A DNA stretch of 64,000 nucleotides from Bacilli bacterium. GTDB taxonomy: Bacteria; Bacillota_I; Bacilli_A; ML615J-28; CAG-698. The stretch lies in contig CAKJYW010000001.1 in NCBI GenBank assembly GCA_918272565.1, forward strand, positions 6,353 to 70,352. The letters run 5' to 3'. The notes below the pieces were generated by a model that did no database searches, was not told the DNA's origin, and worked only from the letters and a program-made list of their open reading frames with translations. The translations under genes were made by a program, and so were the position numbers. Of the stretch, positions 2,491 to 31,090 are shown piece by piece (the stretch's first letter is position 1; every line of letters starts with the position of its first letter).

Positions 2491-2517
2491 GCGCGTAATA
2501 TGCGCTTATTTTTTTAC
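2489..2517 (+). terminator. Rho-independent terminator after yneF
   Basis: aAGCGC-gtaatat-GCGCTt hairpin followed by TATTTTTTT. Confidence 0.65.
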
Positions 2518-2606
2518 TTTTTTTTAATTATACTTGTTTTTAAGTTAATATCGCTAATCATTATCAAAAAGCAATTATGAATATGATTAAAGTGTGAAAA
2601 ATAGAT

Positions 2607-2644
2607 TTGATATTTTATTAAATATATGCTATAATATGTATAAT
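2607..2644 (+). promoter_or_regulatory. Sigma-A promoter TTGATA-17-TATAAT (tandem second TATAAT) for parE-parC
   Basis: TTGATA at 2607-2612 and TATAAT at 2630-2635 (a second TATAAT at 2639-2644), 20-30 nt upstream of the parE RBS. Confidence 0.55.
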
Positions 2645-2665
2645 GAATAGGAAAGGGTGAATTTT

Positions 2666-7106: not shown

Positions 7107-7115
7107 GAGTATTTT

Positions 7116-8174
7116 ATGAGTTGTGTATTAAACATTAATCGATTTTTAATCCCCAATGATGTTATAGTTGACTTAAGTGATATCTACCAATATATTGGTG
7201 AGAATACTGAAGTCAGAAACACCGCATCAAGTGATTTAAATACGATAATAGATCAAACAGTAGAAAAAGATGCTTACTATTTAAGCAAAATTTTAGGCTT
7301 AGACATTAGCGATGCTAGAACTAGATTAATATTAAATAAGAATTCTAATCCAAGAAATAAAGAGGAAAATACCCTTTATAATCTAAAAGATATCTTATCA
7401 AGTTTTCAAAGAGAAAGTGATAGATTGCCTTTACAAACAAATGAATTCTTAAATGAGATTAATTATGTATTTAATCACTATTCAAAGGTTCGCTATGACT
7501 TCGTTTCAACAAAAAAACGTAGTGTTTTACAAGGCGAAGGAGATAGAAGTAAGAGACTTTTACTTGATGAAATCATCCAAGAAATGAATAATATTCTAAG
7601 AACTAGGAAATTTGAACGAATTATCCTCTATCTTCATTTCTTTATCGATTTTTATAATATCAAGCCATTCTATAGCTCTTCATATAATAACGTTAATGAT
7701 GTAGCTAGTTTATTACTTCTTTATAATCTAATGATTAAATCTAATTTAGAGTGTTTCCACTATGTTAGTTTCTTTGAACTAATCTATGAAGAATTACCTT
7801 TATTTAAAGAAGAGCTTTCTAATATTGCTTTTAACTGGGATGAGGGTTATGCTCAAACACTTGGCTTTGTAAGGTTTATCATGAATATCATCTTAACTGC
7901 TTATGAGAGAAATTATAAGCTTATGAAAGATTATAAATTTGATAAGAATTTCAAAAAGCAAGAAAACATTGAAAATACAATCATGGGCATGACTAAAGAA
8001 TTCTCTAAAGAAGATATTAGAGCTATTCATCCTTATGTTAGCGAGTCTACAATCAATCGTAGCTTAATAAGCTTAAGAGATAAAGGATTCATCGCTCCAA
8101 CAGGAAAAGGAAGAAGTGCTAAGTGGATCAAATTAGAAAGAAAGCGTAAGCATAATAATTATGAAAAAATGTAA
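7116..8174 (+). CDS. Hypothetical protein with C-terminal winged-HTH; possible degenerate Fic-fold (motif IKPFYSSSYNNVNDVASLLL in place of HPFxDGNGRxxRLL)
   Basis: SD AGGAG before the ATG. The C-terminus IHPYVSESTINRSLISLRDKGFIAPTGKGRSAKW is wHTH-like. The central segment LHFFIDFYNIKPFYSSSYNNVNDVASLLLLYNLM aligns loosely to the Fic core but lacks the catalytic His and GNGR. Confidence 0.45.
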   Translation: MSCVLNINRFLIPNDVIVDLSDIYQYIGENTEVRNTASSDLNTIIDQTVEKDAYYLSKILGLDISDARTRLILNKNSNPRNKEENTLYNLKDILSSFQRESDRLPLQTNEFLNEINYVFNHYSKVRYDFVSTKKRSVLQGEGDRSKRLLLDEIIQEMNNILRTRKFERIILYLHFFIDFYNIKPFYSSSYNNVNDVASLLLLYNLMIKSNLECFHYVSFFELIYEELPLFKEELSNIAFNWDEGYAQTLGFVRFIMNIILTAYERNYKLMKDYKFDKNFKKQENIENTIMGMTKEFSKEDIRAIHPYVSESTINRSLISLRDKGFIAPTGKGRSAKWIKLERKRKHNNYEKM

Positions 8175-8982
8175 TGAAGGTTTTAAATTTATTCATAATT
8201 ATCATTCACACTGCTATTTATGCGGTCATGCAACAGGAACTGTAAGTGATTACTGCGATGAAGCTTATCGACTTGGCTTTAAGGAGTGGGGAGTAAGTGA
8301 CCATGGGGCTCTAGCCCCACAGTGGAAAGCTAGAATGTCTATGGATGATTTTATCTTAAAATATTTACCTGAGATTGAATTTAATCAAAAGAAATATGAA
8401 GGTAAAATGAAGATTTATAAAGCAATAGAGATTGAATATTATAAAGAATATGATTTGTGGTATAGGGAATATTTAGATAGATATCACTTAGATTATCTTA
8501 TCTTAGGTCAACATGCACTTTATAAAGATGGTGAGTGGATTAGTCCTTACAAAGGATTCACTTTAGATGAAGTCATTGAATACAAAAATGAGATAATTAG
8601 TGGCATGGCTACGGGATATTTCAAGATCTTAGCTCACCCTGATTTATTCATGTTATCATTTGCAAGAGCTAACCAAACATGGGTTAAGGAACTTGATGAT
8701 ATATCTAAAGAAATCATCGAAGCTGCTATTGAATATAATGTTTATCTAGAAGTAAACATCAATGGCGCAAGAAGACCTAAGACAAAGAATGATTTGGGTG
8801 AAGAAACTTACGTTTACCCTTTCCTTAATTTTTGGCGCATTGCTTCAACTTACAAAGACGCTAAATTCATTTTAGGTAGTGACTCTCATAAAGTTGAGTA
8901 TCTAACTGATGGTAAGGATCAAGAGGTAATTGAATTTTGTAATAAAGTTGGTATTAAATTAGAAGAAAGAATTATTTTATAA
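8161..8982 (+). CDS. PHP-family metal-dependent phosphoesterase (histidinol-phosphatase HisJ/HisK-like)
   Basis: N-terminal HSHCYLCGHATG...GVSDHG (HxH and DH metal ligands) and a later AHPDLFML segment are typical of PHP domains. Confidence 0.7.
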   Translation: MKKCNEGFKFIHNYHSHCYLCGHATGTVSDYCDEAYRLGFKEWGVSDHGALAPQWKARMSMDDFILKYLPEIEFNQKKYEGKMKIYKAIEIEYYKEYDLWYREYLDRYHLDYLILGQHALYKDGEWISPYKGFTLDEVIEYKNEIISGMATGYFKILAHPDLFMLSFARANQTWVKELDDISKEIIEAAIEYNVYLEVNINGARRPKTKNDLGEETYVYPFLNFWRIASTYKDAKFILGSDSHKVEYLTDGKDQEVIEFCNKVGIKLEERIIL

Positions 8983-8995
8983 TAACGGTTTAATT

Positions 8996-9778
8996 ATGAG
9001 AAAAGGAAGATTTTGGTTTTTATTAATAACAGATATTTTATCTATTTTATTGATTGTATTTACGATTATTTATCACACTAGATATGATATCTATTTATAT
9101 ATTATTGCGGGGATGATGCTTATTCCTAATTTCACTATGCGTAACACAGAACGTAGTCAATTAGTTCGAATTATTGGTGAATATGCAATGAACGCAGATG
9201 CTTTTAAATATTATGATGATATGGTTGCATTCTATAAAACCCTATATCTAACTAAAAAAGCTAGAAAGATGAATAATATTATCCTAGCAATGATTAAAAT
9301 TGATATGGGTGAAATTGATGAAGCTGAAAAGATGCTAACTGAGTTAGAATCAATCATTGATAAAGCTAATTTCTTTAATAAATATAATTATTATCGTGCT
9401 TGGTGTAGTATCTACTACGAAAAAGGACAAGCCAATCATTATAAAATATTGCTCGAAGAATTAAAGAAAATAATAGAAGCTGCTAAACAACCTACACTAA
9501 GAGATCAAATGATCACTAATTACAGGTATATAGAAGCTAAATACTTTATTATGAATGGAATTTATCTAGATAAGGCTAGGACTTTATATGAAGATACTTT
9601 AAGTATTGATAGTACTACTATTATGAGACTAGTTTCTAATTATTATTTAGGTGTAATCTATGCTAAAGAAAACAATATCGCTAAATCTATCGAATATTTC
9701 AAGAAAGTAGCATTCAGTGACAAGAAACTTCATATTGTTAATAAAGCAATTAAATATATTGAAGCTTTAGAGAAATAA
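8996..9778 (+). CDS. Hypothetical membrane-anchored protein with TPR-like helical repeats
   Basis: Two N-terminal hydrophobic helices (FWFLLITDILSILLIVFTIIY, IYLYIIAGMMLIP) precede alpha-helical repeat-like sequence. It sits directly upstream of the response regulator. Confidence 0.45.
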   Translation: MRKGRFWFLLITDILSILLIVFTIIYHTRYDIYLYIIAGMMLIPNFTMRNTERSQLVRIIGEYAMNADAFKYYDDMVAFYKTLYLTKKARKMNNIILAMIKIDMGEIDEAEKMLTELESIIDKANFFNKYNYYRAWCSIYYEKGQANHYKILLEELKKIIEAAKQPTLRDQMITNYRYIEAKYFIMNGIYLDKARTLYEDTLSIDSTTIMRLVSNYYLGVIYAKENNIAKSIEYFKKVAFSDKKLHIVNKAIKYIEALEK

Positions 9779-9804
9779 AGGTATAATAAAATTGGTGGTG
9801 AATT

Positions 9805-11385
9805 ATGTATAAATTAGTAATTGTTGATGATGAATTTGATGTTCGTAACCGACTAAGCCAATCTATCAAGAAGCTTGATACTGGCTTTGAGATTGTTGGG
9901 ATGTACGAAAATGGGTTAGATGCTTTAGAGGGTGTAAATAATTTGAACCCTGATTTAGTTATAACTGATATTCGTATGCCTTTTATGACTGGTATAGAAT
10001 TAATATCAAAAATCAAAGAAACTAAACCTCTAACAAAAGCCATTATTATTACCGGCTTCGATGAATTTGATTATGCTAAAAAGGCAATCGATTTAGGTGT
10101 TGTTGGTTTTCTAACAAAACCAGTTTTAAACGATGATTTGAAGAACATTTTAATTAAGACAAAAGAAGATCTTGATGAAGAGTATTTTAGAAATACTAAT
10201 CTGGCCAATATGGAGCAGTTCATTAAGGAGAATCTTCCTGTTATCAAAGAAAATGATATTCATACATTGTTAACTAAGACATCAATCGATTCTAAATTCT
10301 ATAAGAAGTTAGAACATGATGGCATCAATATGGATTACAAATATTTTGCGGTATGTATTACTGATATTGATTCTGAAACTGAAAAAGATGATGTTGATAA
10401 ACATGAAATTGACTTGCTTACTGTTAGAAAGAACGTTACAGAAGCTTTACAAGGTCGTTTCTTTAATGAAACTATCACTAGAAATGACGCTATCGTTTCA
10501 ATAATTAAATCTAATGAGGAAATTACAGTTAATCATCTAGAAAAAAGCTTTGAATATGTTCAAATGAAGACAAAGAAATATAATAATTATTCTTTGAGCG
10601 TAGGTATTAGTAATTTCTATAAGAAGCCTAATTTCAAAGAGATGTATCAAGAAGCTCTAAAAGCGTTAGAATTTAGAAATGCTATGGGCGGAGATGAGAT
10701 TTATTTTTTTAGTAACATTCATGATCTTAATCAATCTGCTAGAACAATTGATGATAACGAATACAAAGATTTAACATATGCTATTAGATATAAGACAATT
10801 GACGAAGCTAAAGAGCTATTATCTGAACTTAAGAAGAAGATTACATCTTTAGATTACATGTCAACTTATGCTTATAACATCTCTAATATCTTAAATGCTA
10901 TTTTGAAATCTTGTGATAACTTCCCAATGCTATATGAAGATGGAATCAATTATCATCAAAAGCTATTAGATTTTAAGACTAGTGATGATTTATTTAATTG
11001 GTTTGAAGCGTTAATTACTAGGGTTAAAGTAATTAATGGTGAAATAATATCTGATAATATTCAAAAGAACTTAAATAAGATTATAAACTATATTGATTCT
11101 CACTATACGGAAAATGATTTGAGCTTAGAACTTTTAGCTGATAAAGTTGATATTAGTGTTAGTTATATAAGTGCGATTTTAAAGAAAGAAAAGAACACTA
11201 CATTTGTTAAGTATTTAACATCACTAAGAATGGAAAAAGCTAAAGAGTATCTAAAGAATCCTAATATGAAGATCGTTGATATTGCGGAGCGTGTTGGTTT
11301 TAGTGAAGCTTATTACTTCAGCCATAGTTTTAAGAAATATCAAGGAATTTCTCCAAAGGAATATAGAGAGCAGGAAGACAAATAA
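9805..11385 (+). CDS. yesN: Two-component response regulator, REC + AraC-type HTH (YesN-like)
   Basis: REC motifs VIVDDE, DLVITDIRMPFMTGIEL and a K in ...TKAIIITG. The C-terminus carries an AraC HTH (VDISVSYISAILKK..., FSEAYYFSHSFKKYQGISPKEYR). SD GGTGGTGA. Confidence 0.85.
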   Translation: MYKLVIVDDEFDVRNRLSQSIKKLDTGFEIVGMYENGLDALEGVNNLNPDLVITDIRMPFMTGIELISKIKETKPLTKAIIITGFDEFDYAKKAIDLGVVGFLTKPVLNDDLKNILIKTKEDLDEEYFRNTNLANMEQFIKENLPVIKENDIHTLLTKTSIDSKFYKKLEHDGINMDYKYFAVCITDIDSETEKDDVDKHEIDLLTVRKNVTEALQGRFFNETITRNDAIVSIIKSNEEITVNHLEKSFEYVQMKTKKYNNYSLSVGISNFYKKPNFKEMYQEALKALEFRNAMGGDEIYFFSNIHDLNQSARTIDDNEYKDLTYAIRYKTIDEAKELLSELKKKITSLDYMSTYAYNISNILNAILKSCDNFPMLYEDGINYHQKLLDFKTSDDLFNWFEALITRVKVINGEIISDNIQKNLNKIINYIDSHYTENDLSLELLADKVDISVSYISAILKKEKNTTFVKYLTSLRMEKAKEYLKNPNMKIVDIAERVGFSEAYYFSHSFKKYQGISPKEYREQEDK

Positions 11386-13124
11386 TGTCTGAAACAAAAA
11401 CGAATTTTACGAAAGGGAGAAGCTTACAGTTTAAGATTGCTTTTTATGTCTTATTGCTAATGATCATATTTACAGCTTTTGTAATGTTTTTCACTATTCG
11501 TAACTTTCGAAGTTATGTTGAAGACAGTGCAACAAGTAAAAGTAATGAGATTAGTAAACAAATCGTATATAATTACGAAAACTATATTGCTAGTATCATC
11601 GAGACATTTAATATTGTTGTTGATAAACTAGACAATGAAGATGTAAAAAACAACATTGAGGAAACAAAAGAATATTTTGAGAGTGTTCTAAGCTTTAGAA
11701 CTGATATCAATAATATTATGTTATTTAATATCGATGGATCGATTCTCGTTTCAACAAACGAAAACTTCGATTCACCAAGCGATGTTATTAGAACGATGTT
11801 TTGGTTCCAAGAACCAATTTTACAGCCTACTGCGCATTATTTCTCTCCACCTTACACTAGTGAAAGTGGAGAAAATATGATTTTTGCCACAAAATACCTC
11901 GATTATAATTTTGGTGAAGATAGTGGTGTTTTGATGATTGAACTTTCATCAGATAAAATCGTTAATCTTGCTCGTAACACTAATCTAGGTAAATATGGTC
12001 AAATTGTTATTTTGAATAATGTTAATAGTTTAATTTTCTATAGTGGCGATAGTGTTAACGATGAGATGCTTCAATCAATTCGTAACCAAACTCTAGGAAC
12101 ATCAACTATTTATTTAGATGGTAATCAGTTCACATTAAGTATTAATCCGATAACTAATACTAGATGGAAAATCGCTATCTTTATTAATACTAATGATAGT
12201 CGTATTGCAATTAATAATTTCACAATTACTTTAGGAATTATCTCAGCTATCGCTTTAGTTTCTGCAGCAATCATTGTTACATTCGTTGTACGTGGTATGA
12301 TTAACCCTCTACGTAAGTTAGAGCGTGCGATGAGTGACATTGAACAAAGTGACTTCTTACAATTTAATGAAGTAAAAGTAAGTGGTCAAAAAGAAGTTGC
12401 ATCTTTAACTAATACCTTCAACTTGATGATGAAACGTATTAGAGAATTGATGGATAAGGTCGTATCTGAGCAGATTAGTCAAAGAAAGAGTGAACTTAAA
12501 GCTTTACAATATCAGATTAACCCTCATTTCCTTTATAATACCTTAGATTCTATCGTATGGTTAATTGATGATGGACAAAATAATGAGGCAAGTAGAATGG
12601 TTGTGGCACTGGCTAAGTTATTTAGAATAAGTATTAGCCGTGGTCGTAACATCATTACTGTTAAAGATGAGCTAGAACATGCTAGAAGTTATCTATTAAT
12701 TCAATCAATTAGGTATTCTAATGGATTCAAATACGAATTCGATGTTCAAGATGAAGTCTTAGAGTGCACAACTGTAAAACTTATCTTACAACCATTAATT
12801 GAAAATGCTATTTATCATGGTATTAAGAATAGGATAGAAGAAGGAATCATCAAAGTAAAAGCTTATATTGAAAATGAACGTATCGTCTTCAAAGTTATTG
12901 ATAATGGTTATGGAATGAAAGAAGAAAAAATCAGTCAAATCTATGAAACATTCAAAAACCCTGAAATCAACGATGGCGTAGGTGTTAAAAACGTTTATTT
13001 GAGATTAAAACTTTACTATGGTGAAGACGCTGATTTAACAATCGAAAGTGAACTCGATGAAGGCACAACAATAACTCTTTATATACCACTAAAAACATCA
13101 ATTGGAGATAAACTTGAAGAATAG
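11385..13124 (+). CDS. yesM: Sensor histidine kinase, YesM/LytS-type (His_kinase internal region + HATPase)
   Basis: Two transmembrane segments flank an extracytoplasmic domain, followed by a HAMP-like segment. QYQINPHFLYNTLDSIVWL is the pfam06580-type H-box; HATPase_c motifs (ENAIYHG, VIDNGYGM) are present. Start overlaps the RR stop (TAATG). Confidence 0.85.
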   Translation: MSETKTNFTKGRSLQFKIAFYVLLLMIIFTAFVMFFTIRNFRSYVEDSATSKSNEISKQIVYNYENYIASIIETFNIVVDKLDNEDVKNNIEETKEYFESVLSFRTDINNIMLFNIDGSILVSTNENFDSPSDVIRTMFWFQEPILQPTAHYFSPPYTSESGENMIFATKYLDYNFGEDSGVLMIELSSDKIVNLARNTNLGKYGQIVILNNVNSLIFYSGDSVNDEMLQSIRNQTLGTSTIYLDGNQFTLSINPITNTRWKIAIFINTNDSRIAINNFTITLGIISAIALVSAAIIVTFVVRGMINPLRKLERAMSDIEQSDFLQFNEVKVSGQKEVASLTNTFNLMMKRIRELMDKVVSEQISQRKSELKALQYQINPHFLYNTLDSIVWLIDDGQNNEASRMVVALAKLFRISISRGRNIITVKDELEHARSYLLIQSIRYSNGFKYEFDVQDEVLECTTVKLILQPLIENAIYHGIKNRIEEGIIKVKAYIENERIVFKVIDNGYGMKEEKISQIYETFKNPEINDGVGVKNVYLRLKLYYGEDADLTIESELDEGTTITLYIPLKTSIGDKLEE

Positions 13125-14187
13125 AAGAACTTTAATTTTTGTACTTTTTATTCTATTGATTATTGTTTTAAGTGGATGTAAAGAGAAAAAGACTAAAGTT
13201 GGTGTTTTGTTATATTCATCTGATGATAGTGCTTTAAATATCATTTATGAAACATTCAAAAATCAATTAGATAATAGTTTTGAAATGATCGTTAAAGATG
13301 CTGAAAACAGTCAGATGTTACAAAACGACCAGTTTTTAGAGTTGATTGATGAAGGTTGCGAACTTATCATTGTTAATTTAGTTGATAGACTAAGTGCTTC
13401 AGTTTATGTTGATAAAGCCAAAAAGCAAGATATTCCTTTAATCTTCTTTAATCGTGAACCAATCTGGGAAGATTTATATAATTATAATAAAGCTTATTAT
13501 GTTGGTAACGATGGAGAAGCTATCGGTTTAATGCAAGCGAAGATTGTTGGTAAGATGTTTAGTGATCCGAATGATTTATCAATCTATTATGATACAAATG
13601 GAAATAATATCATTGAAATGGTCATTTTAAAAGGTGAACAAGGACACCAAATTACTGAAACCATCTTCTCAACTTGCATTAATGAACTTCATAACAAGGA
13701 ATATGCTACATCGATTCTAGCAACCGAGTACGCTAACTGGAATCGTCAAAATGCTAAAGAAGCTATTAGGAAATTATATTATTCTAGTAAATGCCGTGAC
13801 AGTCGTGGTAAAAGCAATATTGAAGTTGTCATTTGTAATAATGATGAGATGGCTATGGGTGTAATCGACTTCATTTTTGAAGAAGAGATTTATTATATCA
13901 GTAAAACTGATGGCTCTTATATTATGCCTTTTGATATCATTGGTGCTAATATCACGGTAAGTAGCCTTGCTGCTATTGAATCCAAATACCTATTTGGTTC
14001 AATTACGGGAGAAGAAGCAAAACAAGGAGAAGTTATTGCTTATTTAGTTAAATCATTAGCTAAAAGAAAAACTCCTGATTTAACAATCTATGATGCAGCA
14101 ATTTATGAAAGTGGCGAGCACATTTACAAATTAAACAAGAATTTCATTTATGTAAATGGTGAAATTGTTTATTCAAAAAGACGATGA
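13114..14187 (+). CDS. Lipoprotein of the periplasmic sugar-binding fold (Peripla_BP, RbsB/LacI type); probable co-sensor of the adjacent two-component system
   Basis: Signal peptide KNRRTLIFVLFILLIIVLSGC with lipobox LSGC. KVGVLLYSSDD...LIIVNLVD...IPLIFFNREP follows the type-I binding-protein pattern. SD GGAGA supports the TTG start at 13114 over the track's 13102. Confidence 0.65.
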   Translation: MKNRRTLIFVLFILLIIVLSGCKEKKTKVGVLLYSSDDSALNIIYETFKNQLDNSFEMIVKDAENSQMLQNDQFLELIDEGCELIIVNLVDRLSASVYVDKAKKQDIPLIFFNREPIWEDLYNYNKAYYVGNDGEAIGLMQAKIVGKMFSDPNDLSIYYDTNGNNIIEMVILKGEQGHQITETIFSTCINELHNKEYATSILATEYANWNRQNAKEAIRKLYYSSKCRDSRGKSNIEVVICNNDEMAMGVIDFIFEEEIYYISKTDGSYIMPFDIIGANITVSSLAAIESKYLFGSITGEEAKQGEVIAYLVKSLAKRKTPDLTIYDAAIYESGEHIYKLNKNFIYVNGEIVYSKRR

Positions 14188-14212
14188 TTATTTCTTTCAT
14201 CGTCTTTTGTAT
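14177..14212 (+). terminator. Rho-independent terminator overlapping the binding-protein stop
   Basis: AAGACGATG-attatttcttt-CATCGTCTT followed by TTGTAT. Confidence 0.5.
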
Positions 14213-14314
14213 ACGTCTAATTAAGATTTGTCATAAAAATAAATATTTATATGTTTAATTTAGATAAATTCATTTATAATATTGTTATAAATTAAGTTTT
14301 TGAGGTATTCTTAT

Positions 14315-17305
14315 ATGCTTGAATTAAAGAATATTACTAAAAATTATATAACTGGAGCAGAAACTGTTGAAGCTTTAAAAGGAATAAATCTAATTTTTAG
14401 AAAAAATGAATTTGTTTCTATCTTAGGACCTTCTGGATGTGGGAAAACTACAATGCTTAATATCATTGGTGGGCTTGATAAATACACTAGCGGTGATTTA
14501 GTTATTTCATCAAAATCAACTAAAGAATATAAAGACCGTGATTGGGATAGATACCGTAATCACTCTGTTGGATTCGTTTTTCAAAATTATAATTTGATTC
14601 CTCACCAATCTGTTTTACAAAACGTTGAACTTGCTTTAACTTTAAGTGGCGTTAATAAAAAAGAACGTAGGTTAAGAGCAAAAGAAGCTCTAGAGATGGT
14701 TGGCTTAGGTGATCAGTTTAAGAAAAGACCTCAGGAGATGAGTGGTGGACAGATGCAACGTGTTGCTATTGCTCGTGCTATCGTTAATAATCCTGATATC
14801 GTTTTAGCTGATGAACCAACTGGTGCCCTAGACACTGAAACTAGCGTTCAAGTTATGCAAATCTTAAAAGAGATTAGTAAAGATCGCTTAGTTATTATGG
14901 TTACCCATAATCCAGATTTAGCCTTAACTTATTCAACAAGAATCATTAAAATGGTCGATGGGTTGATTATTAGTGATTCATCCCCTTTAACAAATGAAGA
15001 GCTCAAAATCGAAAATGAACTTGATAAAAAAGAAGTAGAGTCAAAACCTAAAAAGGTTAAAAACCCTTCTATGAAGTTCCATACTTCATTTGGTCTTTCT
15101 CTAAAGAATCTAATTAGTAAAAAAGGTAGAACGATTCTAACATCTTTTGCGGGGTCAATTGGAATAATTGGTATTGCTTTAATTTATGCTGTTAGTCAAG
15201 GAACTACTAATTATATTAATCAAGTTCAAGAAGAGACTCTAGCAAGTTACCCTATTACTGTTGAAGAAGAAAGCGTAAGCTTAACAAGTCTACTAGAAAG
15301 TTTTATGGGTAAAGCTGAAAGCATCGATGAACATGATTTAGAATCGATTTATCAAAAAGCGATGCTTTATGATTTACTTAATTCTATAAGTAATGTTGAA
15401 ACGAAGAAAAATGACTTAGAAAGCTTTAAAACCTTTATTGAAAATGAACTAAAAGATGAAAATTCAAAGCTATATAGTAGCCTAAATAGTGTTCAATACG
15501 GATATAATGTCGATTTGATGATTTATACAAAGAATGTTGATGATAATATCATTAAATCTGATAGTGGACAGTTGGTACTAGATATTTATAAGAATTATTT
15601 AGGAATAGATATGTCAAGTGCTCTAAATTATTCATCTAGTTCGATGATGCGTTCAATGATGAGTGCTTCATATAGTTTATTTAAGGAACTGATTCCTGGT
15701 AAAAATAGAGAGCTTATTAGTAATGTTACTGAAAGCCAATATGATGTTATCTATGGTAGATGGCCTCAAAGCTTTGATGAAGTAGTTTTGTTTGTTGATG
15801 ATAAAAATGAATTAGATGATATGACTTTATATGCTTTAGGTCTTACAGGAGAAGAAGAGATTAAAAAGTTAGCTGAAGCTGCACTAAATAAGACTGAAAT
15901 CGAATATGAGATTAAGAAATGGTCTTATGAAGAGATTTGTTCAAGAACTTATAGGACAATTCTATCTAGCGATTGTTATAATTACGATAGTAAGACTGAA
16001 ACATATACCGATTTAAGAGACACTGAAGCTGGTATCAAATATTTATATGATAATGGACTTGATTTAAAGGTTGTTGGTATAGCTAGACCTGCTAAAGGAT
16101 CAGTTAGAGGAAATAGCGGTTATATCGGATATACTTATTTACTCACAGAATATATCATTAATAAAGCTAAGGAAAGCGATGCAGTTATTGCTCAAATGGC
16201 TGATCCAACAATGGATATTTTCACTAATTTACCTTTTAAGACAGCTGATAATTACTCAGATAGTGAAAAAGCTGATATTTTTAAAGATAAGGTTAGTGAA
16301 ATGACTATTCAAGAAAAGCAAATCACTTACATGCGTATCGTTACAACTCCTAAAGATGAAGATGTTAAGGCTTATGTAGATACTGAGATAGAAAAAGTAA
16401 CAAAAGAAGAGATTACTGAAGCAATTGTATCACTCATGAAGAGTCAAATGGGGCTTGATGAAGAAACTATTAGATCATATATTGCTAATATGAGCGATGA
16501 AGAATTATATAATTATTATCGCACCATTTTAGAACAACGCTATAAGACACAATTTGCTAGAGAAGTTGCAATGCGCCTTGCTAAGATGAGCCAAGATGAA
16601 ATTTTAGCTGAATTTGATGATTTACTTGCTTCTTCAAGCGACGCTGACGTTGCTTTAATGTATGATTTAGTTATCGAATACAGTGACTCAACATACGAGA
16701 AGAACTTGTCTAAGTTAGGTGTTGCTGATATTGAGAGTCCATCTATGATTAGCATGTATGCGGTTAGCTTTAATGATAAGAGTGTTATTGAAGATGAGAT
16801 TACTAGATATAATGCTATAGTTGATGATGAAGAGAAAGAAATTGAATATACTGATTATATCGGTATTATCATGTCATCTATCACAACAATCATTAATGCT
16901 ATTACTTACGTGCTAATAGCGTTTGTAGCGGTAAGTTTAATTGTATCATCAATCATGATTGGAGTTATAACTCTAATAAGCGTCCAGGAGCGAACAAAAG
17001 AAATAGGTATCCTTCGTTCTATTGGAGCAAGTAAGAGAAACGTTAGTAGTATGTTTAATGCGGAAACTATTATTATAGGACTTAATAGTGGCTTAATCGG
17101 TGTAGGAGTAACTTATTTACTTTGTATACCAATTAATCTAATATTACACTACTATACATCTATACAATCATTAAATGCTACACTACCTCCACTAGTTGGA
17201 TTAATTCTAATTGCTATCAGTTTATTATTAACTTTAATATCAGGAATTATTCCATCTCGCTCTGCAGCAAAGAAAGATCCTGTTGTTGCTTTAAGGACAG
17301 AATAA
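14315..17305 (+). CDS. Fused ABC transporter ATP-binding/permease of MacB/FtsX type with a large extracytoplasmic domain
   Basis: N-terminal ABC ATPase ([34 protein letters not shown]), then TM1, a roughly 550-aa extracytoplasmic region and a C-terminal FtsX-like bundle of three or more TM helices. SD GAGGT supports ATG 14315 (MLELKNI) over the track's TTG at 14300. Confidence 0.8.
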
Positions 17306-17337
17306 AGATAGATTTTATATCTATCTTTTTTTTTATT
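17305..17337 (+). terminator. Rho-independent terminator after the ABC transporter gene
   Basis: AAGATAGAT-tttat-ATCTATCTT followed by a T9 run. Confidence 0.65.
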
Positions 17338-17384
17338 GACATATTATTTATCATTTGATACATTTAAGTTGTAAAGGAGTATTT

Positions 17385-18098
17385 ATGTTAAACAAAGATT
17401 TTGAATTAAATTTCACTAGAAACGAAATATCACTTAAGATGAGCGATTTAGAAATTATTTATAAGGGCAAAATGACTAAACATCCACCTAAAGTACTTAA
17501 TCCTGATTCTAATGTTGATTATGGTGGATTTGTCTATAAAATAATTGATTTAGAAAGAAAGAATAACTTTGTCTTCCACGATTTTATTGATACTGATAGA
17601 AGAACAAGTGAAACAAAAGATGTAACTATAACTTTTGATCTTCCTGATATTTATTCTATTAATCCTAAAAACAAATATGATGGAAGATTTTCTTTCCAAT
17701 TTCAAGATATGAAAATTAGTCGTAAACCTAACTATCGTAGGATTTTATTCTTCTATTCCAATGACACTAATGTTAAGTCTATAAATGATTATTTTAAAGA
17801 AGGTCAAACAATTGAATTTGGCACTTATAAAATGAAATGTTTCTTAGATGAAGAAGGACTACCTCAAGGCTTTGCGTATATTTATGATAAATCAAATCGT
17901 TATTATTATTTTGCTAATTTCAAAGATGGCAAGCTACAAGGATTAGTATTCAAATTCACAAACAAGAATAATAAATATGTATTTGTTGACGCTATAGTTT
18001 ACTATGATGATTATAGAACTAATTTATTAAAAGATACATTAGAAAGAATAGATGAATACAATAATAAATACGATTTGACAGTAATTAGTTGGAGTTAA
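17385..18098 (+). CDS. Hypothetical cytoplasmic protein (weak MORN-like GxxxG repeats); last plus-strand gene before the terminus gap
   Basis: SD AAAGGAG lies 6 nt before ATG 17385 (MLNKDFEL); the track start at 17355 is an over-extension. No recognisable catalytic motif. Confidence 0.45.
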   Translation: MLNKDFELNFTRNEISLKMSDLEIIYKGKMTKHPPKVLNPDSNVDYGGFVYKIIDLERKNNFVFHDFIDTDRRTSETKDVTITFDLPDIYSINPKNKYDGRFSFQFQDMKISRKPNYRRILFFYSNDTNVKSINDYFKEGQTIEFGTYKMKCFLDEEGLPQGFAYIYDKSNRYYYFANFKDGKLQGLVFKFTNKNNKYVFVDAIVYYDDYRTNLLKDTLERIDEYNNKYDLTVISWS

Positions 18099-18100
18099 GG

Positions 18101-18153
18101 CTCTATAAGCCTTGTATGAGAAGATTATCTTTTTAAGATGGGTAATTACTAAT
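18101..18153 (+). repeat. Repeat family copy A (ctctataagccttgtATGAGAAGATTATCTTTTTAAgatgggtaattactaat) with mini-ORF MRRLSF*
   Basis: Shares the core GAGAAGATTATCTTTTTAAGATGG-TAATTA with copies at 18486, 18601, 18716, 20143, 27456, 28672 and 48899, all on the + strand. Confidence 0.6.
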
Positions 18154-18229
18154 CTAAAGTTATCATAAACGCGTTATGAAGTGTAAATAATATATAAATT
18201 ATAAGATTCTTATATATAGATGATTTAAA

Positions 18230-18283
18230 AGAAGTGGATATCTGTGTTAATAAATATACTAAATAACCTACTTATCCACTTCT
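18230..18283. repeat. Perfect 11-bp inverted repeat (AGAAGTGGATA ... TATCCACTTCT) with 32-nt loop, 17 nt upstream of dif
   Basis: Read directly in sequence; followed by GATTTT. Could be a terminator or a protein-binding palindrome. Confidence 0.5.
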
Positions 18284-18300
18284 GATTTTATTGATATATT

Positions 18301-18328
18301 GCTTCCTATAATATATATTATGTAAAGT
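18301..18328. other. dif: Probable chromosome dimer resolution site dif (XerC/XerD target)
   Basis: gCTTCCTAtAATATATATTATGTAAAgT versus Bacillus subtilis dif ACTTCCTAGAATATATATTATGTAAACT gives 25/28 identity with the central TATATA and both arms preserved. It lies in a 1.1 kb non-coding gap between convergent gene blocks, with xerD 4.5 kb away. Confidence 0.7.
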
Positions 18329-18485
18329 AGAATATCAAAAGGCAACGGGCTTTGATATATATTGTATAATAAAAAGGTGAATAACAATGTAGCTACTTCA
18401 CCTTGTATTCTTATATTGATCTATCTCAAACAAATCCCCACCAATCATTTCTTATAGATTATCCATGTTTTATTTGCTAATCTTC

Positions 18486-18536
18486 TTGTATAAGCCTTAT
18501 ATGAGACGTTTATCTTTCTTTAGATGATTAATTATC
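18486..18536 (+). repeat. Repeat family copy B with mini-ORF MRRLSFFR* (ATG AGA CGT TTA TCT TTC TTT AGA TGA)
   Basis: ttgtataagccttatATGAGACGTTTATCTTTCTTTAGATGAttaattatc. The Arg codon differs from copy A (AGA to CGT) yet still encodes Arg. Confidence 0.55.
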
Positions 18537-18600
18537 TTATTGGATTCTCTTAATGGCTTATGATTCTTTTTATATATTTATTTCCTGAATTATATTGATA

Positions 18601-18646
18601 AACCCTTATCTGAGAAGATTATCTTTTTAAAGATGGTTAATTATCT
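18601..18646 (+). repeat. Repeat family copy C (aacccttatCTGAGAAGATTATCTTTTTAAAGATGGTTAATTATC)
   Basis: Core contains the palindrome ATCTTT-TTAA-AGAT; the start codon is degenerated to CTG. Confidence 0.55.
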
Positions 18647-18715
18647 GTTTGCTTTCTTAAAAAAGGGCTTTATAAGGCTTTTTTATTATATATTCCTTAC
18701 TTGATTACTCTTTTT

Positions 18716-18802
18716 CTTCTATAAGCTTTATTAGAGAAGATTATCTTTTTAAAGCAGGATAATTAATCATTTAACGTTTTAAAAGAGCTTTGTAGGAGGG
18801 GG
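18716..18802 (+). repeat. Repeat family copy D plus its 3' extension (…ttagagaagattatctttttaaagcaggataattaatcatttaacgttttaaaagagctttgtaggaggggg)
   Basis: The 3' extension aaaagRgcttt-taggaggg recurs at 18661-18680 and 18971-18990, showing that the true unit is about 115-130 nt and arranged in degenerate tandem array. Confidence 0.5.
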
Positions 18803-19210
18803 TTATTAATGAATTTTCATTTAATGATCCACCTAATCAGCCACAAAAAATCTATCTAAATATCTTCTATTTATAATTCTAAAACAGTTATTAAAAAAGA
18901 GCACAAGCCCAAAATTTCACTTATAATGATTTTTGATATAAAAATCGAATAATTAATCATTTGATTGATTAAAAGCGATTATAGAGGGAATTTCAGGCTT
19001 GTTTCTTAATAATAGCTTAATTACAGTTTTATTTTTCTGAAAAAAACTATTTATACTAGCTACTGATCTGTTTTCGTATTGTTTTTTTATAAAAAAGAGG
19101 CTCGAAAAGCTTTAATATATTCATAAATCAATTATGATAATGATTATTTGCTTAAAATTTATATCATTTTTGTCTGTTTTTAAGCATTTTATGGATGATA
19201 ATTAATCTGA

Positions 19211-19242
19211 AAACAAAAAAATCCTCTTATACTTAAGAGGAT
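19211..19242 (-). terminator. Rho-independent terminator of the lipoprotein gene (minus strand)
   Basis: ATCCTCTTA-tact-TAAGAGGAT hairpin overlaps the stop codon, and a T-run follows on the minus strand (plus-strand aaacaaaaaa). Confidence 0.6.
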
Positions 19243-20072
19243 TATCTATTAGATTTGGCTTGAGAACGAGTCTCAACTTCATCTTTAAATGCAAATGTTA
19301 CTTGGAAGTTTACAACACGATTTGCTTCGTTTAAAAGCTTAAATGTATAGTTCTTCTTTTGAGTTTTTTCTGTAATTAAAGTGTAATCGATTGATTTTTT
19401 TTCTTCATCGTTTTCATCTAAGAATACGTTGTATTCTTCAATTAAGATGTAGCTACAATCTTTACTTGCTCTATATTCACTAACGTCTGTTGTAAGTTCA
19501 GTTTCAAGAATTATTTCGTTATTTTCATTGAATTCTTTAACTAAAATGCTCTGAGGTGTAGCTATTTTAATGAAATTAATCTTGTATGTAAATACATAAT
19601 TAAGGTCATTTTTAACAGCTTCACTAGCAAATGTTAGAGTTTGTGTGTCTCCAACTTCGCTTGATAAATTGACATCAGCTTTATATTGAACTAGATAAGA
19701 TCCATCTTCAAGCATATAAATCTCATATAAGAACAATTTATAATTAACGTTTTGAGATTGATAATAGTTTGCTGTAATGAAGAGGCAGACACTGTTTAAG
19801 GTGATCATGTCACCTTGAAGTTTTGATGTATCTGTCTTTGTATCAAACAAAGAGTCACCTTTAACTGATACAAATGAATAATCATCTGAAGCGTAGATTC
19901 CATTAATCTCTATATCGTTAAGTTTATCAAATTTTTGACTTTCTCCTATCGTGTTACTTTTCTCATAGATTGTGAATCCGATTAACTGTTTTTCGCTATT
20001 CTTCTTTTTCCCACAACCCACTAAAGTAAAGCAAACCACAAGGATTAAAAGTAATATAAACTTTTTATTCAT
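19242..20072 (-). CDS. Hypothetical lipoprotein
   Basis: Signal peptide MNKKFILLLILVVCFTLVGC with lipobox LVGC. SD AAAGGTGA supports the start at 20072 (track start 20111 is an over-extension). No catalytic motif. Confidence 0.55.
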   Translation of the reverse strand: MNKKFILLLILVVCFTLVGCGKKKNSEKQLIGFTIYEKSNTIGESQKFDKLNDIEINGIYASDDYSFVSVKGDSLFDTKTDTSKLQGDMITLNSVCLFITANYYQSQNVNYKLFLYEIYMLEDGSYLVQYKADVNLSSEVGDTQTLTFASEAVKNDLNYVFTYKINFIKIATPQSILVKEFNENNEIILETELTTDVSEYRASKDCSYILIEEYNVFLDENDEEKKSIDYTLITEKTQKKNYTFKLLNEANRVVNFQVTFAFKDEVETRSQAKSNR

Positions 20073-20142: not shown

Positions 20143-20200
20143 TAACCCTTATAAACCCTTATAGGAGAAGATTATCTTTTTTAGATGGGTAATTACTAAT
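20143..20200 (+). repeat. Repeat family copy G (taacccttataaacccttatagGAGAAGATTATCTTTTTTAGATGGGTAATTACTAAT)
   Basis: Near-identical to copy A over the core. It has an internal acccttata duplication and no ATG. Confidence 0.55.
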
Positions 20201-20232
20201 ATAAAACTCTCAGAAATGAGTTTTCTGAGAGT

Positions 20233-22810: not shown

Positions 22811-23728
22811 CTATTTTTCTATCTTTTTACCTGCTCTAGGATGAGCATTAATATATACTTCTTTAAGTCTTTGATTATTGATATGAGTATAGATTTCGGT
22901 TGTGGAAATAGATTCGTGACCTAAAAGCTCTTGGATGAGCCTTAAATCAATTCCACGCTCAAGTAGGTGAGTTGCAAAAGAGTGACGGAGCTTATGTGGC
23001 GAAATCTCTTTTTCTATTCCTGCTAAAGCTGCTTTTTGCCTTATAATATCAAAGAAATTTTGTCTAGTCATGTTTGTTCCGCGTCTAGTTATAAAAACAT
23101 AATCTTTACTTTTAATGTTTTGATAAGCAACTCTACCTGTAGAAATGTATTTATTAAGTAGATCAATTGCTACTTCTCCAACTGGAACAATACGTTCTTT
23201 AGATCCTTTACCAAAGATTTGAATAAAGCCACTTTCTAGATGCAAATCCTTTAATTTCAAATTGACAAGTTCACTAACACGTAATCCACTAGAATAAGCA
23301 AGTTCTATCATCGTTTTATTTCTAAGTTCAATTGGATTATCTTCCGTTAAAACGTTAAGTAAATTTTCAACTTCTTCAATTGATAGGACTTGTGGCAAGT
23401 GTTTTTCTTGCTTAGGATTTTGAATTAGTTTAGCTACATTCTTACTAGCATAGTGCTCTAAAGTCAAAAATTTATGGAAACTCTTTAGGGCTGATAGTTT
23501 TCTTGATTGACTAGATGAAGCTATATTCTTCCTTTTTAATGATTGTAAATAACTTCTAACGTCATCAATTGTTATAAAATCAGGATCAGTAATATTACGA
23601 TATTTCTCTAGAAATTCGATATATTGATCGATATCCATAACATAAGAACTGCATGTGTTTTCTGATAACCCTGCCTCAGTAGTTAGATACATTCTATATT
23701 CACTTGAAAGATGTTCCATACCATTCAT
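22811..23728 (-). CDS. xerD: Tyrosine recombinase XerD (Xer family site-specific recombinase)
   Basis: N-terminal GLSENTCSSYVMDIDQYIEFLE resembles XerD/RipX (GLSDNTLVSYKRDLTQYIQYME). The C-terminal catalytic region HKLRHSFATHLLERGIDLRLIQELLGHESISTTEIYTH carries the R..HxxR..Y signature. A dif candidate lies 4.5 kb away. Confidence 0.75.
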   Translation of the reverse strand: MNGMEHLSSEYRMYLTTEAGLSENTCSSYVMDIDQYIEFLEKYRNITDPDFITIDDVRSYLQSLKRKNIASSSQSRKLSALKSFHKFLTLEHYASKNVAKLIQNPKQEKHLPQVLSIEEVENLLNVLTEDNPIELRNKTMIELAYSSGLRVSELVNLKLKDLHLESGFIQIFGKGSKERIVPVGEVAIDLLNKYISTGRVAYQNIKSKDYVFITRRGTNMTRQNFFDIIRQKAALAGIEKEISPHKLRHSFATHLLERGIDLRLIQELLGHESISTTEIYTHINNQRLKEVYINAHPRAGKKIEK

Positions 23729-26772: not shown

Positions 26773-26884
26773 AAAGGCACCTATTAATAATTCTACTTTA
26801 CATAATATTTTATAATATTTATTATATTTTTTCAATAATTAAAAATGTCAATTCATGATATAATATTATATGAGGTTATTAAAT

Positions 26885-27457
26885 ATGAAAATAAATTACC
26901 CTAACCCATCAATTAAAACAACAAAAACGAATTCCATTAGAACTTATGGAATGCTTTTTGAAAATGTTTTAAATGAAACAAATGAATATTACAAAAATAA
27001 AGATATCGCCTATATCTATAAAAAGCCTACTCCGATTCAGGTTGTTAAAGTGGACTACCCAGCCAGAAACAAAGCCAAAATCACGGAAGCTTACTACCGC
27101 ACCCCTTCAACAACCGACTATAATGGCATTTATAAAGGAAAATACATTGACTACGAAGCTAAAGAAACAACCGAAACTTCTTTTTCTTTCACTCACATTT
27201 TCCCTCATCAAATTGATCATTTAATTAATGTTAAACGTCACGGAGCAATATCTTTTGTTATAATATACTTTAAAAAATATAACGAAGTAATAATCATCGA
27301 TATCGATGACTTCTATAAACTATACGATGATGGTGTTAACCATGATGGTAGGAAAAGCATTCAATTTGAGAAAGCAAAAGAAATAGGGCGCATTGTTCCT
27401 AAAGGATACACACCACTTCTAGATTATCTAAAAACAGTCGATGAAATGTATTTCTAA
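26885..27457 (+). CDS. recU: Holliday junction resolvase RecU
   Basis: GMLFENVLNETNEYY...PTPIQVVKVDY...TEAYYRTPSTTDYNGIYKGKYIDYEAKET matches RecU. SD GAGGT 8 nt upstream supports ATG 26885 (MKINYPN). Confidence 0.85.
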   Translation: MKINYPNPSIKTTKTNSIRTYGMLFENVLNETNEYYKNKDIAYIYKKPTPIQVVKVDYPARNKAKITEAYYRTPSTTDYNGIYKGKYIDYEAKETTETSFSFTHIFPHQIDHLINVKRHGAISFVIIYFKKYNEVIIIDIDDFYKLYDDGVNHDGRKSIQFEKAKEIGRIVPKGYTPLLDYLKTVDEMYF

Positions 27458-27508
27458 CCCTTATTAGAGAAAATTAATTATTTATAGACGTATAATTATA
27501 AATAAAAA
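27456..27508 (+). repeat. Repeat family copy (aacccttattaGAGAAaATTAATTATttatagacgtataattataaataaaaat), left member of an ~85 bp direct repeat
   Basis: Matches 28672-28714 nearly base for base. The core is shortened by deletion of the hairpin segment between two ATTA motifs. Confidence 0.5.
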
Positions 27509-27509
27509 T

Positions 27510-27550
27510 GCTTAAAAGCAACTTAGAGAAGCTTTTAAGCATTTTTTTAT
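27510..27550 (+). terminator. Rho-independent terminator after recU (GCTTAAAAGC-11 nt loop-GCTTTTAAGC + T-run)
   Basis: Perfect 10-bp stem and T9. Duplicated at 28716-28754. Confidence 0.7.
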
Positions 27551-27553: not shown

Positions 27554-28549
27554 TTATTTTTTCATTTTCTTTATTTCTTTATTAACTTTATTTAGTGTTA
27601 ATGTTTTATAGCCATCATCTATCTTAGAAAAATATGATGAAACAAATTCAGCTTCATATTCATGGTCACCTAAATATTTTATTTTAATTACAGCACAGCC
27701 TATTATATCTCCATCCATTTTAATGATGATATCGATGTAGGCTTTTTTGATGTTTTTATCGTGCATCTCTTCGTATTTAACTAAATCTTCAGTATAAATA
27801 GGGCACCATGATAAAAGGCTGTTAGAATCTACTGAAACTTGATTAGTCTTATTAAAACTATAAAAAGAACCTCTATCAGTGCTGCATTCAAACCTAGCAC
27901 CTTCTAGATTAAAGATGAAAAATATACCAACATAACCTTCATTAATATTAAATGTTTCACCAAACGGAAAATAGACAAGGCTTTTAATCTCTTCTAAAGT
28001 TTTATCTATTTTTGTTTCTTTTGCTTCTTCTATTTTATTTAGGGTATATTCTAGTGAGATATTATCTAAATAATTATCTCCTTCTTTAAATAACTCAACT
28101 GTATGGGTTTCATATTTATATAGACTTTTTTCAATCTGATACATTTCAATTATTAAAAAGCCGATAATATTATCATCCATCCTAATAATTACATCCATGT
28201 ACGTCTTATCTATTTTATTAACATACAGTTCTTGAAAGATATAATCATCTAAAATATAAACAGGAGTCCATACAATATCTTCATTAGAATTAAATATACT
28301 TTTTTTTACTATATTATAACGATCAAATGAGCCATATTCTATTTGGCAATCAAATGTAGCTCCTTCTAAAGTAAAGTGTATAGGGTGTATGCTACTCATC
28401 CCATTATTAAAATAAGGATAAGAATACGAAACGATGTTGTATGGATCAACTATTTCTTCTTCATCATTTTTAATGCTTTCATTGTTACCTTTGCAACTAA
28501 AAAGGATAAAGCAAGAAGCTATTATTAATAATATAATTATTTTTTTCAT
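27554..28549 (-). CDS. Hypothetical lipoprotein with an internal tandem duplication of a ~150-aa domain
   Basis: Lipobox LFSC. The halves DCQIEYGSFDRYNIV...MDVIIRMDDNIIGFLIIEMYQ and ECSTDRGSFYSFNKT...YIDIIIKMDGDIIGCAVIKIKY align. Flanked by ~85 bp direct repeats. Confidence 0.55.
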   Translation of the reverse strand: MKKIIILLIIASCFILFSCKGNNESIKNDEEEIVDPYNIVSYSYPYFNNGMSSIHPIHFTLEGATFDCQIEYGSFDRYNIVKKSIFNSNEDIVWTPVYILDDYIFQELYVNKIDKTYMDVIIRMDDNIIGFLIIEMYQIEKSLYKYETHTVELFKEGDNYLDNISLEYTLNKIEEAKETKIDKTLEEIKSLVYFPFGETFNINEGYVGIFFIFNLEGARFECSTDRGSFYSFNKTNQVSVDSNSLLSWCPIYTEDLVKYEEMHDKNIKKAYIDIIIKMDGDIIGCAVIKIKYLGDHEYEAEFVSSYFSKIDDGYKTLTLNKVNKEIKKMKK

Positions 28550-28671
28550 AATTTCACCACTTTATTAATCAATATTTTCTTAATTAGATTTTATCATTTA
28601 TCGTTTTATATTGTCAAATCTAAAGAATTATAAATAATATTTATTAAAAAAACACATTCAAAACTCGTTTT

Positions 28672-28754
28672 TGAGAAGATTAATTATAAAAAGGCGTATA
28701 ATTATAAATAAAAATGCTTAAAAGCGACTTGGTGAAGCTTTTAAGCGTTTTTTT
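28672..28754 (+). repeat. Right member of the ~85 bp direct repeat (repeat-family remnant TGAGAAGATTAATTAT + terminator hairpin GCTTAAAAGC/GCTTTTAAGC)
   Basis: Compare 27466-27550. The hairpin right arm overlaps the stop codon of the 28741..29256 gene and is T-flanked on both strands, so it likely terminates the minus-strand gene. Confidence 0.6.
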
Positions 28755-31067: not shown

Positions 31068-31090
31068 AATAGTCTCCATATCTATATATA

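Follow-up and report, generated by a model that had tools for sequence, protein, structure and literature searches.

Gene Organization and Strand Skew Around a Convergent Gap

The window analyzed in this study comprises 64,000 nucleotides of contig CAKJYW010000001.1 from the genome assembly of a Bacilli bacterium (GCA_918272565.1). Between positions 18099 and 19241 it contains a gap on which the genes of both sides converge, and this gap is very probably the terminus region of the chromosome, with a dif site for Xer recombination inside it. The gap has a length of 1143 bp and a GC content of 24.5%, compared with about 30% in the window. No coding sequence (CDS) was found in it; the longest open reading frame (ORF) has 39 amino acids, and no ORF is conserved across the relatives described below. 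From 2263 to 18098 every real ORF is located on the + strand. Between 19242 and 63674 the real ORFs are all located on the - strand, with the exception of recU (26870-27457) and rnhB (39757-40653), and the remaining + strand ORFs listed for this part overlap genes of the - strand and are their shadows. An initial annotation, made from the sequence alone, had described transcription converging on an AT-rich gap of this size devoid of a credible CDS, which holds with recU and rnhB as exceptions. The gap is bordered by an orphan gene on the left and by a predicted lipoprotein gene on the right, which ends in an intrinsic-terminator-like hairpin (Table 1).

The strand skew switches at the same place. 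Calculated in successive intervals of the + strand, the GC skew is about +0.1 to +0.2 between 2 and 18 kb and about -0.1 to -0.25 between 19 and 64 kb. At single-base resolution the cumulative G-C skew has its maximum at position 18392 and the cumulative T-A skew its minimum at position 18387. Since the skew tracks the coding strand here, the non-coding DNA was tested alone. The intergenic GC skew of the + strand amounts to +0.25 in the left arm (770 nt) and to -0.127 in the right arm (3704 nt). In addition, the sense skew at third codon positions (GC3) of all four lagging-strand genes lies under the mean of the 47 leading-strand genes. The intergenic and GC3 results show that the skew switch is more than a restatement of gene orientation.

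Furthermore, short oligomers are distributed in a strand-polar way. The most skewed oligomers of the whole window are purine-rich, and AAAAGAAG was counted 37:0 (leading:lagging). The heptamer GAAGAAG, which orients FtsK of Lactococcus lactis as an FtsK-orienting polar sequence (KOPS; PMC3384302), was counted 8:1 (+:-) in the left arm, compared with 1:38 in the right arm, giving 46:2 (leading:lagging) overall. Such purine-rich polar oligomers flipping at dif fit the role of candidate translocase-guiding motifs, a pattern which is confounded with the coding strand.

The dif Site and Its Chromosomal Context

Inside the gap lies the 28-mer GCTTCCTATAATATATATTATGTAAAGT, which is identical at 25 of 28 positions to ACTTCCTAGAATATATATTATGTAAACT, the experimentally defined dif site of Bacillus subtilis (PMC3025954), whose position in that genome is 1,942,543 (PMC3384302). 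The mismatches are found at positions 1, 9, and 27, and the central TATATA is the same. The layout of the 28-mer is 11-6-11, with two 11-bp arms showing partial dyad symmetry about a 6-bp center, a palindrome which also appeared in the repeat search. To the site of Staphylococcus aureus and Listeria, ACTTCCTATAATATATATTATGTAAACT, it is identical at 26 of 28 positions. A match to the B. subtilis dif with at most three mismatches occurs once in the window and never in 100 dinucleotide-shuffled sequences, and even with up to seven mismatches allowed the 64 kb contain no further dif-like site. The initial annotation had assigned the same 28-mer, with the TATATA center and both Xer-binding arms, and had recommended a scan for further matches; the assignment is upheld, and the scan, as run within the 64 kb, left the site single.

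Two half-site matches were identified. The first one is an exact copy of the XerD-arm 11-mer at 26795-26805 (-) upstream of lepA, for which about 0.2 copies were expected by chance in the half-site search and which is not conserved in relatives. The second one is a weak inverted 14/17 match to the dif spacer and XerD arm at 18180-18196 (-), 105 bp to the left of dif. Both weak matches are compatible with chance in AT-rich DNA. When the gap was compared with plasmid and phage records by BLAST, the only matches were the dif sites of S. aureus and Listeria records, which are in truth chromosomal.

A scan of viral contigs for dif sites led to a separate observation. The predicted-prophage contig IMGVR_UViG_2744054619_000001 (L017) carries a full Firmicute dif, ACTTCCTATAATATATATTATGTTAAAT, at 8339-8366 near the contig end, and lacks the clade-specific flank described below. 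Probably this is either a prophage call running into the host terminus or a phage adjoining dif.

The xerD gene is located at a distance of 4.5 kb from dif. Its product passes the TIGR02225 cutoff and remains under the cutoff of the XerC model, so that the XerD-type recombinase named in the initial annotation is substantiated. It adjoins deoB (drm), an arrangement which would match that of B. subtilis. Likewise, the genes yneF, parE, and parC, which had been pointed out as a conserved neighborhood, are present to the left of the gap; in B. subtilis they would likewise be located near the terminus. Housekeeping genes in the window comprise parEC, lepA, hemW, deoB, yjbQ, recU, mutS2, rnhB, lspA, and aspS as well as hisS, recN, dxs, xseA, nusB, and dtd, and this gene set identifies the replicon as a chromosome and not a plasmid. 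No homologue of rtp or tus was found among the scanned ORFs of the window with at least 100 amino acids, and a search for tRNA and tmRNA genes gave none.

Conservation of the Site in Relatives

The closest homologues of the XerD protein come from metagenomes only, human gut samples among them. The nearest named ones, with 64% identity, belong to metagenome-assembled genomes (MAGs) labeled Izemoplasmatales or "Bacilli bacterium". Related loci were fetched by XerD identity, with 89% for L002/L003, 78% for L009-11, 75% for L006-8 and L014, 67% for L015, and 64% for L016. In addition, L013, an orthologous metagenome contig, and L019, a conspecific strain with 96% nucleotide identity, were included. 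In total, nine relatives were fetched, which represent eight distinct lineages.

In every relative whose sequence reaches the gap (L002/L003, L006-8, L009-11, L013, L014, L015, and L016), a single dif-like 28-mer is located in the orthologous convergent gap and in the same orientation. These 28-mers differ from that of the window by two to four mismatches, and several of them have TTATGTTAAAT as their right arm, which is also the XerD arm of Escherichia coli. Most of the intergenic DNA around dif has diverged past alignment among the relatives. The gene content next to the site changes as well: only the window, L002, and L019 have the ABC transporter and the 237-amino-acid orphan, and L015 has its dif at a distance of about 1.3 kb from parC. 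In L014, genes for a helix-turn-helix (HTH) regulator, a split phage-type integrase, and a group II intron reverse transcriptase (10811-15114) adjoin dif on the side away from the lipoprotein gene, and this region is mobile DNA lodged at the terminus of a lineage with a XerD protein 75% identical to that of the window. A site that stays fixed while its surroundings turn over is what is expected of a functional dif.

Between the window and the conspecific strain L019, dif shows no difference (0/28). The segment 18101-18283 to its left differs at 1 of 183 positions, whereas the DNA at 18401-18795, which contains the repeat units 2-4 described below, differs at 11-28%, compared with 2.5-2.7% in coding DNA. 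The divergence is thus sharply asymmetric across dif. As a separate difference between the two strains, L019 carries a gene for a GNAT acetyltransferase of 161 amino acids (10922-11407) between xerD and deoB, which is missing in the window.

Interpretation of the Gap as the Chromosome Terminus

Based on the position at the switch of skew and gene orientation, the sequence of the 28-mer, its uniqueness in 64 kb, its orthologous conservation, and the xerD gene, we read the gap as the chromosome terminus region of an uncultured gut Bacilli bacterium with 30% GC, and 18301-18328 as its single dif site, with a probability of about 90%. The tests in the window and the relatives together thus support the overall reading of the initial annotation, a terminus with a Bacillus-type dif.

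By homology with CodV/RipX of B. subtilis and XerC/XerD of E. coli, XerC would bind the left 11-bp arm, and the XerD protein encoded nearby would bind the right arm. A translocase of the FtsK/SpoIIIE type, steered by the strand-polar purine-rich motifs, may pair the two dif copies of a chromosome dimer at the septum, where strand exchange across the 6-bp TATATA would resolve the dimer. The replication forks would meet at the gap.

Several points weigh against this interpretation. The position of dif and the point of fork fusion need not coincide (PMC3025954). The skew follows the coding strand, with a reversal at 1-2 kb and a weakening at 39-41 kb, places with genes on the opposite strand, and the GC and oligomer skews are only partly independent of the evidence from gene orientation. 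The view covers 64 kb of the replicon, outside which the skew may inflect more strongly or another dif-like site may exist. Finally, neither xerC nor ftsK/spoIIIE was found among the scanned ORFs of the window. The xerC gene is usually unlinked, and its absence near dif says little.

The exact fusion of the forks in the gap is uncertain, and the skew extremes indicate that it happens close by. If the 28-mer is a genuine dif and the forks normally fuse elsewhere, the gap would be a site of dimer resolution and not the physical terminus. Such a separation seems somewhat unlikely here. The dif sites and the skew shift points of genomes are reported to lie close to each other without a causal tie (PMC3025954), and the repeats in the gap keep the same orientation across dif, as expected if a replication-linked boundary lay outside the gap. 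However, both extremes of the cumulative skew, whose location had been proposed as a check in the initial annotation, lie about 60-90 bp from dif within the window, and the intergenic skew changes its sign.

A further explanation takes up a hint of the initial annotation that integrated elements exploit XerCD at dif. The 28-mer could be the junction or attachment site of an integrative mobile element exploiting Xer (IMEX), or a secondary dif-like site with the working dif elsewhere. Terminus regions attract such elements, as illustrated by the integrase, HTH, and intron genes beside dif in L014, and the inverted match at 18180-18196 might be read as a weak partner site. In the window, however, the 64 kb contain no second site that could bound an element and no convincing pair of half-sites, the gap has no CDS that could serve as cargo, and the repeats are unrelated to dif. 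Moreover, the same single site is found between the same housekeeping neighbors in eight lineages. An IMEX at dif is not borne out in the window, and this explanation is very improbable.

That the 28-mer is a chance AT-rich palindrome without function, as the 75% A+T of the gap and the simple TA-rich center of dif might suggest, is effectively refuted by the conservation of the site in orthologous places where the flanks no longer align, and both the absence of comparable matches from the shuffled sequences and the G/C-containing arms as the conserved parts leave it a negligible probability.

Table 1. Features at the dif locus, in the neighboring genes, and at related loci. Positions refer to the window unless a locus is named.
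Feature	Position	Strand	Remarks
dif site GCTTCCTATAATATATATTATGTAAAGT	18301-18328	+	25/28 to B. subtilis dif; unique in window; kept in relatives
XerC-type arm of dif GCTTCCTATAA	18301-18311
Central region of dif TATATA	18312-18317
XerD-type arm of dif TTATGTAAAGT	18318-18328
Clade-conserved block AGAATATCAAAAGGCAACGGGCTTTGATAT	18329-18358		adjoins XerD arm; imperfect inverted repeat ATATCAAA / TTTGATAT
Inverted repeat AGAAGTGGATA...TATCCACTTCT	18230-18283		31-nt loop; DnaA-box-like 9-mer in each arm
Hairpin AAGGTGAA...TTCACCTT	18374-18404		holds DnaA-box-like GGTGAATAA at 18376-18384 (+)
Sigma-70 promoter	L009 15246-15275	- (locus)	+ in window orientation
Sigma-70 promoter	L015 9959-9987	- (locus)	+ in window orientation
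Sigma-70 promoter	L006 14622-14650	- (locus)	+ in window orientation
Repeat unit 1	18101-18179	+	nhmmer E=5.8e-18; starts 3 nt past stop of 237-aa orphan; 1/79 differences to L019
Repeat unit 2	18486-18562	+	nhmmer E=1.2e-11; 13% divergent from L019
Repeat unit 3	18595-18674	+	nhmmer E=2.4e-16; 20% divergent from L019
Repeat unit 4	18716-18795	+	nhmmer E=1.9e-13; 11% divergent from L019
Partial repeat unit (3' half)	18949-18980	+	direct-repeat families D6, D8
Second repeat fragment	19187-19207
Repeat unit 5	20148-20227	+	nhmmer E=2.3e-16; between yjbQ and lipoprotein gene
yneF (UPF0154)	2263-2490	+
parE	2657-4651	+
parC	4626-7106	+
237-aa orphan	17385-18098	+	last left-arm gene; no family match; absent from more distant relatives
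Terminator-like hairpin	19220-19243	-	intrinsic type; ends lipoprotein gene; right edge of gap
Predicted lipoprotein, ~276 aa	19242-20072	-	last right-arm gene; no family match; neighbors dif in most relatives
xerD	22811-23728	-	TIGR02225 356.6 bits, cutoff 329.6

Conserved DNA Flanking dif

The clade-conserved block that adjoins the XerD arm has the consensus T-AGAATAT-[C/G]AAAAGGC-N-ACGGGC-...-ATAT in an alignment of eight lineages. All eight sequences have the outer ATAT/ATAT pairs of its inverted repeat unchanged, and a few compensatory changes occur in the inner pairs. Its first bases, AGAA, are also found beside dif in S. aureus and Listeria, and the rest is clade-specific. With RNAalifold, the only structure obtained for the right flank of dif was the palindrome within dif itself. 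A six-frame translation of the eight lineages gave no conserved ORF around dif.

In addition, DnaA-box-like 9-mers were identified on both sides of the site. To the left, a motif of the form (A/T)GTGGA(A/T)AA is located at most 100 nt from dif in seven of eight lineages. In the window and in L002 it makes up the two arms of the 18230-18283 hairpin, where the 9-mers of the TGTGNATAA / TTATNCACA type occupy 18232-18240 (+) and 18273-18281 (-); this hairpin is identical in L019 (0/54 differences). To the right, (T/C/G)GTGAATAA is located at +65 to +75 from dif in six of seven lineages. Between -130 and +160 of dif, one to six DnaA-box-like matches with at most one mismatch were found per lineage in seven lineages, compared with 0.43 expected. 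This corresponds to about eight times the locus-wide density, a comparison of an AT-rich motif with a background taken mainly from coding DNA. The left and right motifs would fit the DnaA-box consensus TGTGNATAA / TTATNCACA, which is suggestive only.

Furthermore, promoters of the sigma-70 consensus type were found beside dif in L009 (12/12 consensus positions), L015 (12/12), and L006 (11/12). They end 27-31 nt upstream of dif and point through it. At the equivalent place, no such promoter is present in the window, L002, or L014.

The flanking blocks and the promoters are leads and not findings. Instead of a bare 28-mer, the dif of this clade may represent the central part of a conserved module of about 200 bp, with the repeats as a possible second, previously undescribed terminus element, a speculative proposal to which we give little credence. 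The module may consist of DnaA-box-like motifs at about -70 and +70, the inverted-repeat block at the XerD arm, and a promoter in three lineages. If this were true, Xer recombination or another function of the terminus, like the unloading of SMC (structural maintenance of chromosomes) complexes by XerD, would be coupled to DnaA status or to transcription.

An Intergenic Repeat Family Near the Probable Terminus

The gap and its surroundings contain imperfect repeats of about 80 nt. The repeat clutter flanking dif, to which the initial annotation had drawn attention, is real, as five copies were found by nhmmer with E values near 1e-11 or lower. The consensus is ATAAGCCCTTATATGAGAAGATTATCTTTTTAAAGATGGGTAATTACTAATC...TTCTC..AGA.GGCTTAT; its 5' half is well conserved, and the whole resembles a loose palindrome. 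With a profile of 16 copies, three weaker copies were detected at 27453, 28662, and 48898, which are intergenic and on the + strand. All eight copies in the window are intergenic and on the + strand, and five of them are located within 2 kb of dif.

The repeats occupy orthologous places in the relatives, namely directly past the stop codon with which the last gene of the left arm ends and in the spacer that separates yjbQ from the lipoprotein gene. An orthologue of unit 1 was found in L002. Unit 5 has orthologues in L002, L006, L013, L014, L015, and L016, and a copy is present at this place in all relatives examined. The terminus gaps of the relatives contain several copies on both sides of dif, with about seven in L009. 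Compared with L019, units 1 and 5 differ by about 1%, whereas units 2-4 and their spacers differ by 11-28%. Since these values also exceed the 2.5-2.7% of coding DNA, the tandem copies to the right of dif look unconstrained or hypervariable.

No similarity of the repeats to dif was found, and no described relative could be found in genome, metagenome, viral, plasmid, or phage collections. A single genome-contig match to the repeat core, in a MAG of the Chthoniobacterales, was due to chance. The metagenome-contig matches were the orthologous L013 and a chance match in a phage tail-fibre-like gene, which was also the only match among viral contigs.

The best reading of the repeats is a family of intergenic elements at gene 3' ends, similar to repetitive extragenic palindromic (REP) sequences or miniature inverted-repeat transposable elements (MITE), which has built up in the only large interval without genes. 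They are neither Xer substrates nor remnants of an element integrated at dif. Under this REP/MITE-like reading, their uniform orientation across dif and their clustering are unexplained. Iterons, an array of clustered regularly interspaced short palindromic repeats (CRISPR), and Ter sites were ruled out by the spacing, the imperfect identity, and the uniform orientation. Sites of a fork trap of the RTP/Tus type were rejected because the strong copies to the left and to the right of dif are all on the + strand and are not opposed.

Another explanation would be that the units are tandem sibling genes of small RNAs or RNA elements of 3' untranslated regions, which we regard as quite unlikely. Their spacing of 109-122 nt, the conserved 5' half, a C-rich CCCUU motif, weak promoter- or terminator-like sequences at some units, and the placement straight after stop codons would be in line with it. 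However, RNAalifold gave no consensus structure for 15 copies, and in a hand-drawn model with three stems 68.6% of the cells pair, compared with 35-52% in slid controls, with little covariation. Folding gave z-scores between -1 and -2.8 for either strand, and the promoter-like matches are not above the expectation from shuffled sequences. The search against Rfam up to an E value of 1 gave only a chance match to His_leader (27.5 bits, gathering threshold 49 bits), and the scan at gathering thresholds only two T-box leaders elsewhere in the window.

It is highly doubtful that the units are functional elements of the terminus, like polar barriers or sites of a terminus protein, which could serve in fork arrest, as a translocase stop, or in SMC unloading, or accessory sequences for Xer recombination. 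Their number close to dif in the window and in L009, the nearly uniform orientation, and the conservation of units 1 and 5, which keep their position across species and are almost invariant between strains, speak for such a function. The repeat core also contains GAGAAG, and L006 and L009 have CCCTTCTC, the reverse complement of GAGAAGGG, which is the SpoIIIE recognition sequence of B. subtilis (PMC3384302). On the other hand, the copies at 27453, 28662, and 48898 are found at ordinary gene ends at a distance of 9-30 kb, and a fork trap would not have its sites in one orientation to the left and right of dif. In addition, the divergence of units 2-4 between the two strains of the species reaches or exceeds the neutral level, and the scanned ORFs of at least 100 amino acids in the window include no RTP- or Tus-like protein.

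A further observation concerns two diverged copies at 27453-27550 and 28662-28750, which flank an orphan gene for a protein of 331 amino acids at 27554-28549 (-). Each of them precedes the same terminator hairpin, AAAATGCTTAAAAGC...GCTTTTAAGCATTTTT, so that direct repeats of about 100 nt result. In L002, recU directly adjoins a DUF402 gene, and no gene intervenes. The locus resembles a gene gain through recombination at the repeat or through its duplication.

Comparison With Known Systems

The dif site belongs to a thoroughly known kind, of which the window adds a member from an uncultured lineage; profile-based predictions of dif exist for hundreds of genomes (PMC3025954). The closest model is dif of B. 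subtilis with its recombinases CodV (XerC) and RipX (XerD), which shares the 28-bp 11-6-11 layout, the TATATA center, and a skew switch near parE/parC. The window differs from it in the three substitutions, the uncultured host with 30% GC, the xerD gene at a distance of only 4.5 kb, and the lack of an RTP/Ter system evident in the window. The predicted dif of S. aureus and Listeria monocytogenes shares in addition the AGAA outside the XerD arm, but the longer right block (AATAT..AAAGGC..GGGC..ATAT) and the DnaA-box-like motifs are found only in the clade studied here.

The dif/XerCD/FtsK-KOPS system of E. coli has the same architecture, with polar oligomers that flip at the site and the XerD arm shared by several relatives of the window. 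However, its XerC arm is unrelated in sequence, the candidate polar motif in the window is, as in Lactococcus, of a purine-rich type (GAAGAAG/AAAAGAAG) and differs from GGGNAGGG, and no Tus/Ter was found in the window.

Elements of the IMEX type, like the CTX and TLC phages, the gonococcal genetic island, and the dif modules of Acinetobacter, would be located at this very place beside dif, but the gap carries neither a second dif-like site nor cargo genes, and its repeats are not derived from dif. The repeats resemble REP sequences and bacterial interspersed mosaic elements (BIME) as well as BOX, RUP, and Correia-type (MITE-like) repeats in being about 80 nt long, apparently imperfectly palindromic, multi-copy, intergenic at gene 3' ends, and variable between strains. 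They are distinguished from these families by the lack of sequence similarity (Rfam, plasmid, and phage searches were negative), the clustering at the terminus, and the nearly uniform orientation, and no associated transposase was identified in the window.

A fixed terminus and dif site for uncultured gut Bacilli allows replichores to be oriented, assemblies to be checked, and comparative maps to be anchored, which applies to MAGs in particular. It also shows that even at a great distance from the model organisms the Bacillus-type dif sequence has hardly changed. As for whether the dif sites of Firmicutes carry accessory DNA, the conserved flanks and the repeats enriched at the terminus give leads only.

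Further Features of the Window

Four large ORFs have no match to a Pfam or NCBIfam family, namely 29361-31079 (-) with 572 amino acids, 34920-36938 (-) with 672 amino acids, 60263-63148 (-) with 961 amino acids, and 7116-8174 (+) with 352 amino acids. Finally, the two T-box leaders, both above the Rfam gathering score, are located at 1563-1818 (-) upstream of a gene for a MetN-like ABC ATPase and at 47754-47966 (-) upstream of hisS-aspS.

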